From a phage: a stretch of 64,000 bases of DNA. Location: the sequence record PZ452596.1, one strand, 5' to 3'. Below are positions 46,296 to 49,399 of the stretch, piece after piece. A program made the translations under genes and the position numbers. The notes beneath the pieces were generated by a model, which saw only the letters and a program-made list of their open reading frames with translations, made no database searches and was not told the origin of the DNA. Every line of letters starts with the position of its first letter. The first letter of the stretch is position 1.

Positions 46296-47615
46296 TCACA
46301 CATAAAATACGTCATAACGACCACGGGTAACACCAACATAAAGAAGTTGTTGAGCCAATTCAGCATCTGCATAATGAATACAAGGTGTATAAATGAAAGC
46401 ACGGTCTACAGACATACCCTGAGCTTTATGGAATGTTGATGCAGGAAGTGCTTTCACTTTACTAAACTGTGATTTAGCATCCCAAAAATCACTCCACGGA
46501 GCTTTTCCGCCTTTGTTCCAATTTTTATAAGTTTCTGCCGTTTTACCTAAAAATAGGTTAAACTTATATAGCTCTTCATCAGATGAAATTATTTTAATCT
46601 TTTCACGATAATATTCATCATCGCCGTAAGTTTCTACTGTTAAATCCCAATGACGAATTAAGTATTCTCCATGAACACCACGGGCTTTAACAAACGTTGA
46701 TGTATACTCTGCTTCTATAATACGAACTAATTGTCCGTTATTAAAAATAATTTCTGACACAGGCTTTCCATCAATTTTATATGTTTTAATTAATGGTTCC
46801 TGCATTACAATAATTTCACCAACAATAAAATCTTTATCAGTTTCAAAAATCTTTTTACGAATAATGCTATTTAACTTGTCAACGGATTTATTCGTAAATG
46901 CCATTACGCGATTTTCAAACAAATCATCTAGTGATTTGACAATTGAAAAATAATTTACCATAAAATCGCGTAAAGCGGTATCACCAGTAAATCCACGTAC
47001 TCCATGACCGTCAACAACTTTATCATAAATCCACTTACCGTTGCGAACATCAGTAGCTACATCAATAATAGGAGCATTACTGCGTTTAACTTCAGTAAGT
47101 TCACACTGATAAAAATCTTTGTGTGTAAAGAATGGACTGATATAAGCAGTATTTTCTCCTGGATCAACAGGTCTAATTTGCTTATTATCACCTATTCCAA
47201 TTATAGTACACCAAGGTGGAATAGTTGAAAGCAGAATTTTAAATAGCTTTCTATCATACATTGACACTTCGTCGCAGATTAATACCCTGCATTTAGCTAA
47301 ATCTGGTACTTCCTTCTGTTCAAAAAGAACGTTTTCTTCATACGTAACTGGGTTAATTTTAAGAATACTATGAATAGTACTCGCTTCTTTCCCCGACAGT
47401 TTTGAAAGAATCTTTTTAGCTGCATGTGTAGGAGCTGCTAAAATAATACCAGTTTCACCCGTAGATATTAAAGCTTCAATGATGAATTTAGTAAGAGTAG
47501 TCTTACCGGTACCAGCAGGTCCATTAATAGTTACATGATGTTTCTTTTCTTTAATAGCCCTCATAACGATGTTAAAGGCATTTTTCTGGCCTTCTGTCAA
47601 ATCATCAAATGTCAT
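46296..47615 (-). CDS. dda: Dda DNA helicase (SF1B)
   Basis: 439 aa, Walker A GPAGTGKTT; matches T4 Dda. Confidence 0.95.
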   Translation of the reverse strand: MTFDDLTEGQKNAFNIVMRAIKEKKHHVTINGPAGTGKTTLTKFIIEALISTGETGIILAAPTHAAKKILSKLSGKEASTIHSILKINPVTYEENVLFEQKEVPDLAKCRVLICDEVSMYDRKLFKILLSTIPPWCTIIGIGDNKQIRPVDPGENTAYISPFFTHKDFYQCELTEVKRSNAPIIDVATDVRNGKWIYDKVVDGHGVRGFTGDTALRDFMVNYFSIVKSLDDLFENRVMAFTNKSVDKLNSIIRKKIFETDKDFIVGEIIVMQEPLIKTYKIDGKPVSEIIFNNGQLVRIIEAEYTSTFVKARGVHGEYLIRHWDLTVETYGDDEYYREKIKIISSDEELYKFNLFLGKTAETYKNWNKGGKAPWSDFWDAKSQFSKVKALPASTFHKAQGMSVDRAFIYTPCIHYADAELAQQLLYVGVTRGRYDVFYV

Positions 47616-47923
47616 CGGAAAGTCCCTGCAATTGGAATACTAACAATACGCCCAGTATCTAAAATTCGCTGATATAATCTTTGTGTGTCTACGTCAGGCT
47701 TAACATGTTTAACTTCTATTTTATTAAACCAAAATTTACGTGGAGTCTCAACTAATCTTGGAATTCCCTTACCTAAAGCTAGTTGATACTGCTCTTTAAG
47801 AGTGGTAAATACTTTATCAGCAATCTTCCATTCAAAAAATACAGCAGGACGATGTTCATCGAGCGGAACTGGCGCCGTAAATCCGTCTTTGTCTCGGTAA
47901 ACTATCGCATATACATAAACCAT
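47612..47923 (-). CDS. hypothetical protein (dda.1 position)
   Basis: 103-aa ORF overlapping dda start. Confidence 0.5.
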   Translation of the reverse strand: MVYVYAIVYRDKDGFTAPVPLDEHRPAVFFEWKIADKVFTTLKEQYQLALGKGIPRLVETPRKFWFNKIEVKHVKPDVDTQRLYQRILDTGRIVSIPIAGTFR

Positions 47924-47924
47924 A

Positions 47925-48671
47925 TTATCCTCGGATAAGTTTAAAAATTGAACAATTTAGCGGGTATCCTCTTTTTAATTTGAGTTTATCAATAAATGAT
48001 AAGTTTTGAAACCGCTCTACACCTTGAATAATTTTATCACACATATCATATTGCATTTCTGCTTCTGACAACTTTTTCACAATTTTCCAATCCGAGCCTT
48101 TAAGAAGAACGTTCAGTTTAACAACTTCAGCGCCTTCTGCTATACGAGAACCATCAATACGAGCTTTAAGTGCTATAATTCTTAGCTTAATGTCAGAGGT
48201 CTGTTTTGACTTAGAAAGCTGAGAAATGTGTTCAATTCGGTTTTCACGTTTTTTCTGTATAGCTTTAATTTGATTATAAGTCTTTTTGATTTTAGCCCAT
48301 TTCTTTTCATCTAAATTTAGTTTATGAACTTTTTTCGCAGATGAACGACCAATTCGCAAAGCAAACAAATCACGTTTTTCAATCAACTCCTCTAAAGTAT
48401 AATCAGAACGAAATGTATTATACTTTTTCTTTACTGCAATAACATTCCCTTTAATGTATCCAACGTTATTATCAAAACGTTCTAATGATAATTTCTCTCC
48501 TTCAATACGATTATCAAAAGGTTCTCCCGAGTAAGCACAAACTTTTTGATCTAAAATGTTCTTAATGTAATTGAAGTCTAAGTTAAAATCTTTAGAACGT
48601 CTTTTTGCAGATGCCTGAGTGTGCTCTAAACGACGTTTAATTTTACGAATTTGATTATTAGACAGTTTCAT
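47925..48671 (-). CDS. srd: Srd-like protein (position-based)
   Basis: 248-aa basic ORF between dda.1 and modA; contains CAYSGEPF...SLERFDNNVGYIKGNV motif. Confidence 0.45.
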   Translation of the reverse strand: MKLSNNQIRKIKRRLEHTQASAKRRSKDFNLDFNYIKNILDQKVCAYSGEPFDNRIEGEKLSLERFDNNVGYIKGNVIAVKKKYNTFRSDYTLEELIEKRDLFALRIGRSSAKKVHKLNLDEKKWAKIKKTYNQIKAIQKKRENRIEHISQLSKSKQTSDIKLRIIALKARIDGSRIAEGAEVVKLNVLLKGSDWKIVKKLSEAEMQYDMCDKIIQGVERFQNLSFIDKLKLKRGYPLNCSIFKLIRG

Positions 48672-48796
48672 ATTTTTCTCACATCTTACAGACGATTTAA
48701 TACTTTATTACTATAACATTTTTACCTTAACTTGTAAACAACTTTATGTAAAAATGCTTTAAAAATTTCATGGTATAATGAATCTAAGTCCTTCCA

Positions 48797-49399
48797 TTAT
48801 AGATTAAATCCTTCAAAATCAAGAGTATAGATAGTGTATGTTGAATACTTTTTATACTCATATCTATCTGCAATTCTAAATACACTTCCAGCTGGTATCA
48901 TTACTTCTTGTTCATCTGAAACTAATTCCATATTACGATAACGATGGCTATCCGGAAACTTAAAGTTTGGATTGTATTCTTTACAGCGTAGAGCTTTTAT
49001 AGCATACTCCTGGAAATTGAATACCATAGGAGCTTTGAATTCAAAAATAACTTGTGTGTTATACTCTAAACCGGAAGCAAAATGTAGAGCTATATTTTTA
49101 TCATATGAAGCTGATACGACTTTATCAAATGTAATAATATCAATTCCTTGATTTAATACTTGCTTAGTCTCAGCTGGAACACCTCTCCAAAGAGGTTTAT
49201 CGTTTGGAACCAAACGAGATTTGATTATTTCATTTAACCAAGAATGATCGTCTGGTTTATTAGTAATACAATGAATTAAAAGTTCAATTTCAGATAAATT
49301 AAACCCTTCAGAAAGTAATTCTTCACGAATAGAAGCACGCACCGATGCATCCATTGATTTTATTTTAAAATCTTTTAGTTGCATTACTGAGTATTTCAT
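48797..49399 (-). CDS. modA: ADP-ribosyltransferase ModA
   Basis: 200 aa, same length and position as T4 ModA. Confidence 0.85.
   Translation of the reverse strand: MKYSVMQLKDFKIKSMDASVRASIREELLSEGFNLSEIELLIHCITNKPDDHSWLNEIIKSRLVPNDKPLWRGVPAETKQVLNQGIDIITFDKVVSASYDKNIALHFASGLEYNTQVIFEFKAPMVFNFQEYAIKALRCKEYNPNFKFPDSHRYRNMELVSDEQEVMIPAGSVFRIADRYEYKKYSTYTIYTLDFEGFNL

Follow-up and report, generated by a model that had tools for sequence, protein, structure and literature searches.

The conserved motif of phage Srd at the centre of a probable PacI-type His-Me finger domain without zinc sites

The srd gene and the conserved motif of its product

The window analysed here, a stretch of 64,000 nucleotides of phage DNA (sequence record PZ452596.1), contains on its minus strand the gene srd (47925..48671), an open reading frame of 248 codons plus stop with an ATG start; all srd features given below lie on the same strand. 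Its product has a mass of 29 kDa and an isoelectric point of 10.0, as computed from the translation, in agreement with an earlier note made from the sequence alone, which had remarked on a basic 248-residue protein between dda.1 and modA and on a conserved-looking motif within it that resembled degenerate nuclease or DNA-binding motifs. This motif (CAYSGEPFDNRIEGEKLSLERFDNNVGYIKGNV, residues 45-77, 48441..48539 in translation) begins with CAYSGEPF, runs to LSLERFDNNVGYIKGNV and represents the most conserved stretch of the protein family. Our results support and sharpen the nuclease reading, and they place the motif at the centre of a His-Me finger domain of the PacI type that lacks zinc sites.

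In the list of open reading frames, srd is flanked by dda.1 (47612..47923) and modA (48797..49399), with dda beyond dda.1 and modB beyond modA. The gene order dda / dda.1 / srd / modA / modB is the same in the window, in T4 and in RB27. The encoded protein shares 247 of its 248 residues (99.6%) with T4 Srd (NP_049634.1, gene srd, T4p019), which is of equal length, and the reading frame that the earlier note proposed to compare with T4 Srd on the basis of its position is thus Srd itself. The sole substitution is F222, which is Y222 in T4, and therefore the motif at residues 45-77 is identical in the two proteins. In the PHROGs database, residues 4-248 match phrog_1400 'Srd anti-sigma factor' with an expectation value (E) of 1.3e-108. 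At the DNA level, the 1.85-kb srd region matches phage RB27 at 100% identity, and the window is accordingly assigned to that phage; identities to hundreds of T4-type genomes, in which the gene bears the name srd, are 95-99%. By its full-length homology and its position between dda.1 and modA, the protein is a member of the T4 Srd family (phrog_1400).

Among 17 proteins of the Srd family, with identities down to 31%, nearly all invariant positions fall within residues 21-96, including C45, A46, Y47, S48, G49, E50, F52, E64, R65, N68 and G71, as well as Y72, G75, N76, V77, V80, K81, K83, Y84, N85 and R88. When the N-terminal 100 residues were made into a profile and compared with 1.84 billion cluster representatives, 10093 of these matched at E<=1e-3, of which 683 reached E<=1e-10, and both results agree with the impression of a conserved motif. 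Residue conservation was counted over 320 domain copies from the retrieved proteins. C45 and N76 occur in every copy (100%), R65 and Y72 in all but one each (319/320, 99.7%), and G71 and N85 in 98% (N85 in 314 copies). Position 64 is acidic throughout (Asp in 178 copies, Glu in 142), and position 88 is basic (Lys or Arg) in 293 copies (92%). The D-N-N element of the motif is occupied by Asp or Asn at D67 in 99% of copies and by Asn at N68 in 70%, with N69 being variable. The key residues are E64-R65, G71-Y72 and N76, plus N85, which lies beyond the motif as originally quoted.

Scans of Srd with Pfam and NCBIfam gave nothing above noise, and the domain has no model in either collection; the Pfam HNH models in particular did not match Srd at E<=10. 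For ten relatives and for intermediates with the layout of PacI, Pfam returned only sub-threshold hits to HNH or HNH_5. A large family of phage domains is thus without a Pfam or NCBIfam model, and its sole characterised relative is a rare-cutting restriction enzyme, PacI.

Relationship of the N-terminal domain to PacI

The N-terminal domain (residues 1-110, 48342..48671) is predicted to adopt the PacI-type His-Me finger fold, a variant of the HNH fold, on the basis of AlphaFold2, Foldseek and hhalign. Residues 1-112 were modelled by AlphaFold2 from a 64-sequence alignment, with a predicted local distance difference test (pLDDT) score of 91.6. The domain was folded alone, because a Foldseek search with the full-length model of Srd gave only coiled-coil noise, which came from the C-terminal half. 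The resulting model contains helices 5-24 and 33-40, strands 61-65 and 77-81, and helices 82-90 and 93-108, and the beta hairpin formed by the two strands is followed by helix 82-90 in a beta-beta-alpha topology. In a Foldseek search of the PDB with this model, the Gme HNH nickase (4h9d) ranked first with a probability of 0.99, PacI (3ldy) ranked second with a probability of 0.98 and a query-normalised template modelling (TM) score of 0.61, and the matches beneath these two were noise. By its modelled beta-beta-alpha-metal fold, the domain belongs to the His-Me finger / HNH superfamily.

The same relationship was found by comparison of sequence profiles. When a 64-sequence profile of the domain was searched against the sequences of all PDB chains, PacI (3LDY/3M7K) came first, with an E-value of 0.08 that is marginal on its own. 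The match required the 64-sequence profile: a search of the PDB with the single Srd sequence produced no matches, and one with a 12-sequence profile produced only cold-shock noise. The residues paired in the profile match are C45/C63, E64-R65/D92-R93, D67/D95, G71-Y72/G99-Y100, N76/N104, N85/N113 and R88/K116 (Srd/PacI). Direct alignment of the two families by hhalign gave a probability of 94.9% and E 4.3e-8 over 89 columns, and placed Srd residues 13-100 on PacI 28-129, i.e., on the whole of PacI minus its N-terminal zinc ribbon. The PacI profile used here is shallow, because the homologue search gave only four close relatives. Sequence identity between Srd and PacI is about 16-18%.

Further links are provided by PHROGs and by intermediate proteins. 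Srd residues ~10-98 match phrog_3322 'endonuclease' (1e-18), phrog_3118 'HNH endonuclease' (1e-16) and phrog_1035 'endonuclease VII' (1e-7), and PacI matches the same three families (phrog_1035, 8e-12; phrog_3322, 5e-5; phrog_3118, 3e-4). P0272, a protein from Patescibacteria laid out like PacI with a zinc ribbon and CxxC...CxxCN, matches both phrog_1035 (2e-25) and the Srd family itself, phrog_1400 (8e-13). In a joint alignment of Srd, its stand-alone relatives, the PacI-layout intermediates and PacI, the invariant residues are A22, C45, R65, G71, Y72, N76 and N85 (Srd numbering). The four routes to PacI (the PDB profile search, Foldseek, hhalign, and PHROGs with the intermediate) are partly independent of each other, and they establish the homology, the common fold and the conservation of the catalytic residues.

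PacI is well known as an exception among His-Me finger (HNH) nucleases. It has no catalytic His, and the part of general base or nucleophile falls to a Tyr in the inter-strand loop (PMC5714182, PMC4081073). A single metal ion is held by the side chains of one Asp and one Asn (PMC4081073). The catalytic residues of PacI have also been listed as 'H, DR and CxxCN' plus the Tyr following DR (PMC11529989). We mapped these residues onto Srd by the alignments. The predicted beta-beta-alpha-metal core of Srd (LSLERFDNNVGYIKGNVIAVKKKYNTFRSD, residues 61-90, 48402..48491) aligns with PacI 89-118 (LGVDRSDSFEGYSPQNARLACFICNRIKSN). Within it, E64-R65 (48477..48482) corresponds to PacI D92-R93, the Asp-Arg 'DR' pair that stands in place of the canonical 'DH', and the acidic residue would be a metal ligand. 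Y72 of G71-Y72 (48456..48458) corresponds to Y100, the loop Tyr that replaces the catalytic His. N76 (48444..48446), immediately before strand 2, corresponds to N104, the middle Asn of H-N-H, N85 (48417..48419) to the helix Asn N113, a probable metal ligand, and R88 (48408..48410) to K116. Srd therefore has the middle and core-helix Asn residues of HNH enzymes, and in place of the general-base His at the end of strand 1 it has R65, the same swap as in PacI (R93), which is a proven member of the superfamily. Judged from these alignments, the PacI catalytic set is complete in Srd, comprising E64-R65, G71-Y72, N76, N85 and R88. Finally, C45 (48537..48539) corresponds to PacI C63 and is the sole remaining Cys of the CxxC...CxxC zinc site.

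These results refine the earlier reading, which had been drawn from the spacing of Cys, D-N-N, G-Y and G-N-V. Since PacI is an HNH variant with Arg in place of His and a loop Tyr, E-R and N85 combine with the Cys, G-Y and G-N-V elements into a PacI-type signature, and D-N-N is the element that matters least. The guess of a degenerate nuclease was right as to the nuclease-like fold; 'degenerate' is apt in comparison with canonical HNH enzymes but not with PacI, against which the catalytic signature is complete. Clear homology to T4 Srd in combination with the lack of a nuclease-like fold had been named as the outcome that would count against the nuclease idea. The homology is clear, yet the nuclease-like fold is present, and the idea therefore stands. 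In the searchable literature we found no paper that links Srd to HNH, His-Me finger or PacI proteins. The classification of His-Me fingers by Jablonska et al. (2017) does not mention Srd and describes the PacI group (group 20) as having 78 giant-virus, 4 bacterial and 6 eukaryotic members and no Pfam family (PMC5714182).

The C-terminal half, domain layouts and surroundings of srd

The C-terminal half (residues 111-248, 47928..48341) is predicted by the full-length AlphaFold2 model (pLDDT 88) to consist of helices 122-153, 159-191 and 194-222 and a conserved tail, and it may represent the part of Srd that binds a partner or oligomerises. The tail (DKIIQGVERFQNLSFIDKLKLKRGYPL..., residues 212-248, 47928-48038), which has the pattern ...RFxNLSFIDKxKLKxGxPL... 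with R220, G235 and P237 invariant in the Srd family, is the sole strongly conserved portion of this half and a candidate partner-binding peptide. It persists in a short relative of 195 residues (P0027) that lacks the long helices. A seemingly tail-only match in phage SonariX (H90) proved to be an ordinary full-length Srd orthologue adjoining dda and is therefore no evidence for the tail as an independent module.

Using tblastn against 50,697 phage records, we identified the N-terminal domain in 1334 records, including Acinetobacter, Pseudomonas and Streptomyces phages and cyanophages, and the C-terminal half in 837, all of them enterobacterial T4-like phages among the matches listed. The layouts among 289 proteins with the domain comprise 93 Srd-like proteins, 75 stand-alone domains (<=150 residues), 54 proteins with the domain at the C-terminus, 46 with tandem copies and 35 with a PacI-like upstream CxxC..CxxC ribbon, and some relatives carry helix-turn-helix (HTH) repeats. 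Such stand-alone, tandem and ribbon-linked layouts are as expected for an autonomous nuclease module. Given these layouts and this distribution, the N-terminal domain behaves as an autonomous module and the C-terminal half is a lineage-specific addition, and Srd divides into a widespread head of enzymatic type and a lineage-specific helical half. A six-frame search of the window found no paralogues of the N-terminal domain.

Several relatives stand in settings of their own. The Streptomyces phage Kenrey gene 108 (L002, 2737-3285), which encodes a homologue of the domain annotated as 'HNH endonuclease', is located directly after the gene of a Ro-like RNA-binding protein and near tRNA genes, possibly a hint of an RNA-related context. 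The neighbours of a stand-alone homologue on a phage contig of ~200 kb (P0216) are small unannotated genes and therefore uninformative. Five long proteins of eukaryotic or giant-virus-like appearance (P0041, P0089, P0100, P0149 and P0163) contain two to four tandem modules of a zinc ribbon (CxxC..CxxC) plus a PacI-like domain; they are probably giant-virus members of His-Me group 20 and would bridge the layouts of PacI and Srd.

Annotation of the family is uneven. In BFVD, 80 viral structures match at E<=1e-3, named 'anti-sigma factor' or 'HNH endonuclease' or left uncharacterised. In the Acinetobacter phage Stupor, the positional orthologue of srd beside dda is annotated as a 'putative HNH endonuclease', and automated pipelines thus have occasionally seen the HNH link. 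GenBank names for Srd orthologues include anti-sigma factor, decoy of sigma70, anti-termination protein, putative HNH endonuclease and hypothetical protein. The record PV654520.1, labelled 'Pseudomonas phage vB_PSGBLB0006', contains an N-terminal domain 100% identical to that of Srd, which suggests a T4-type genome bearing a Pseudomonas label.

The modA-srd spacer of 125 nucleotides (48672-48796) contains a candidate srd promoter (48710..48738), found by a consensus scan: TTTACA, a 17-nucleotide gap and a TG-extended TATAGT, i.e., a consensus match at 10 of 12 positions plus TG. It is followed by A-rich sequence, and a transcript starting with A at this place would fit the capping of srd mRNA with nicotinamide adenine dinucleotide that has been reported (bioRxiv 10.1101/2024.04.04.588121). 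Three terminator-like hairpins were observed on the plus strand, against 0.4 +/- 0.6 expected from shuffles, at 47787-47807, 49181-49196 and 49200-49217, antisense to dda.1 and modA. Rfam gave no match in the whole window, and the PADLOC defence models gave none either.

Srd function and comparison with known systems

T4 Srd, as described in papers citing Qi et al. (2015), attaches to the N-terminal catalytic half of RNase E and promotes the degradation of host mRNAs, and it is among the very few proteins known to bind this half. Expression of srd impairs the growth of E. coli (Mosig et al. 1998, as cited in PMC6070864). Taking these reports with the alignments and the model, we consider it fairly probable that the first ~100 residues of Srd form a PacI-type His-Me finger domain whose catalytic core is the motif. 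For the catalytic activity, the substrate and the half of the protein that contacts RNase E, we infer the following scheme. The general-base His of HNH enzymes is replaced by Arg in E64-R65, and the loop Y72 would do the chemistry; one divalent metal would be held by E64 and the helix residue N85, and N76 would brace the hairpin. The N-terminal domain would act as a module that depends on a metal to bind nucleic acid and probably also to cut it, and the helical C-terminal half may tether or position it on the N-terminal half of RNase E, or may serve for oligomerisation. Together, the two parts would speed the decay of host mRNA early in infection. Cleavage of the HNH type gives 5'-phosphate ends, and since RNase E prefers such ends, the faster decay could be explained by a nuclease head attached to this enzyme.

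A more specific proposal seems to us rather unlikely, namely that Srd itself is an active Tyr-dependent one-metal nuclease, docked on RNase E via its C-terminal half, which initiates the cutting of host transcripts or introduces nicks into host DNA. If true, 5'-phosphate ends made by Srd would feed RNase E, and part of the 'stimulation of RNase E' would be due to catalysis by Srd itself. The zinc-less PacI-like domain would then represent a large clade of active phage nucleases, with hundreds to thousands of clusters.

A number of observations weigh against the reading of the motif as a PacI-type catalytic core. The statistics of single routes are modest (E 0.08 for the PDB profile, E 0.02-0.08 for Foldseek). 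In contrast to PacI, which has two Cys4 zinc sites per subunit, Srd lacks the whole N-terminal Cys4 ribbon (PacI C4, C7, C24 and C27) according to the alignment, as well as three of the four aligned ligands of the second site, with PacI C66, C109 and C112 corresponding to S48, K81 and Y84 and only C45 left; cleavage by PacI is said to need zinc binding (PMC11529989). In addition, the auxiliary His42 of PacI aligns with K27, in a column that is K/L/I in the wider family, although the helix alignment may be shifted here by 1-2 residues. Finally, mRNAs were reportedly not destabilised by Srd in cells with defective RNase E, an argument against Srd as a self-sufficient RNase. As a separate observation, C45 is kept in each of the 320 domain copies, though its three partner ligands in the ancestral Cys4 site have disappeared.

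The loss of the zinc sites and the RNase E dependence that is said to characterise the effect of Srd are both compatible with an exapted and catalytically silent fold, a surface for binding RNA or RNase E, with Srd being a pure adaptor or allosteric activator in the manner of RapZ and its conserved residues being needed for binding and folding instead of for chemistry. The literature on Srd, as relayed by citing papers, describes it solely as an RNase E-binding activator, and inactive His-Me fingers reused for binding are known, i.e., SMAD MH1 and ENPP (PMC5714182). We regard this explanation as a real, if minority, possibility. It is weakened because the known inactivated fingers have neither the His nor an equivalent Tyr (PMC5714182), whereas the Srd domain family keeps its acid, Arg, Tyr and both Asn at 98-100% in 320 copies, a level hard to explain by binding alone. 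The same conservation is seen in stand-alone and tandem copies that lack the C-terminal half of Srd.

Alternatively, Srd may be mainly a DNA endonuclease like PacI that, for example, nicks cytosine-containing host DNA and would spare the glucosyl-hydroxymethylcytosine DNA of T4, with the effect on RNase E being secondary or separate. All characterised relatives (PacI and the HNH enzymes) cut DNA, some members of the family have HTH repeats or tandem copies, like homing endonucleases, and the cited toxicity of Srd to E. coli on expression would also fit. However, srd occupies a fixed syntenic place near dda in T4-like phages, unlike a mobile homing gene, the sole published phenotype in the accounts available through citing papers is mRNA decay via RNase E, and no DNA phenotype is reported in the searchable literature. 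We therefore consider a mainly DNA-directed enzyme quite improbable.

The names in use for Srd orthologues imply yet another function, that of a sigma-70/sigma-S decoy or anti-sigma factor whose motif mimics part of sigma. Two short patches resemble E. coli RpoD: Srd 89-118 (48318-48407) has 13 of 30 residues identical to RpoD 569-598 in region 4.2 (pairwise E 0.008), and Srd 3-29 (48585-48665) matches RpoD 353-379 at a pairwise E of 0.09. The name 'similarity with rpoD' probably derives from them. Homology to sigma-70 was rejected, since the similarity is confined to these patches of 27-30 residues, the Pfam sigma-70 regions do not match Srd at E<=10, and the Srd-family profile gives a probability of 0.3% against RpoD. 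Moreover, both patches are part of the PacI-like fold, with conservation extending to stand-alone relatives of nuclease type and to PacI itself, and the motif at residues 45-77 has no RpoD counterpart. In the searchable literature we found no experiment on the binding of Srd to the RNA polymerase core or to sigma. We give the sigma decoy hardly any credence, and the 'anti-sigma / sigma decoy' label has spread to hundreds of phage genomes without sequence support. A chance pattern in a basic, low-complexity protein is refuted by the invariance within the family, the 683 representatives at E<=1e-10 and the confident fold.

The interest of a PacI-type domain in Srd is moderate, because the activation of RNase E by Srd becomes a question of specific point mutants. 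The intact PacI-type signature yields testable hypotheses, and the mutants to make are Y72F, E64A, R65A, N85A and C45S.

Among the known systems, canonical HNH enzymes such as the Gme HNH nickase (4H9D), the Cas9 HNH domain and T4 endonuclease VII have the topology, the middle Asn and the helix Asn in common with Srd, which differs by R65 in place of the general-base His, with Tyr72 as the presumed substitute, and by the lack of a CxxC...CxxC zinc site. The inactive His-Me fingers, SMAD MH1 and the nuclease-like domain of ENPP, are a precedent for reuse of the fold in binding (PMC5714182), but neither the His nor its Tyr substitute survives in them, whereas Srd retains the full PacI-type set. 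RapZ, an adaptor of E. coli, is a functional analogue, as it and Srd (the latter as relayed by citing papers) each reportedly attach to the catalytic half of RNase E and promote cleavage; RapZ targets one small RNA, whereas Srd acts on bulk host mRNAs, and our comparisons found no relationship between the two in fold or sequence. The closest relative with a solved structure is PacI (PDB 3LDY / 3M7K; His-Me group 20), which has in common with Srd the acid-Arg pair at the end of strand 1, the loop Gly-Tyr, the Asn before strand 2, the helix Asn-x-x-Lys/Arg and the preceding helical segment, where Srd A22 corresponds to PacI A37 and Srd F29-x-L31 to the region of the PacI FT motif. Srd differs from PacI by the addition of a helical C-terminal half of 140 residues, and RNase E, rather than DNA, is its published partner.

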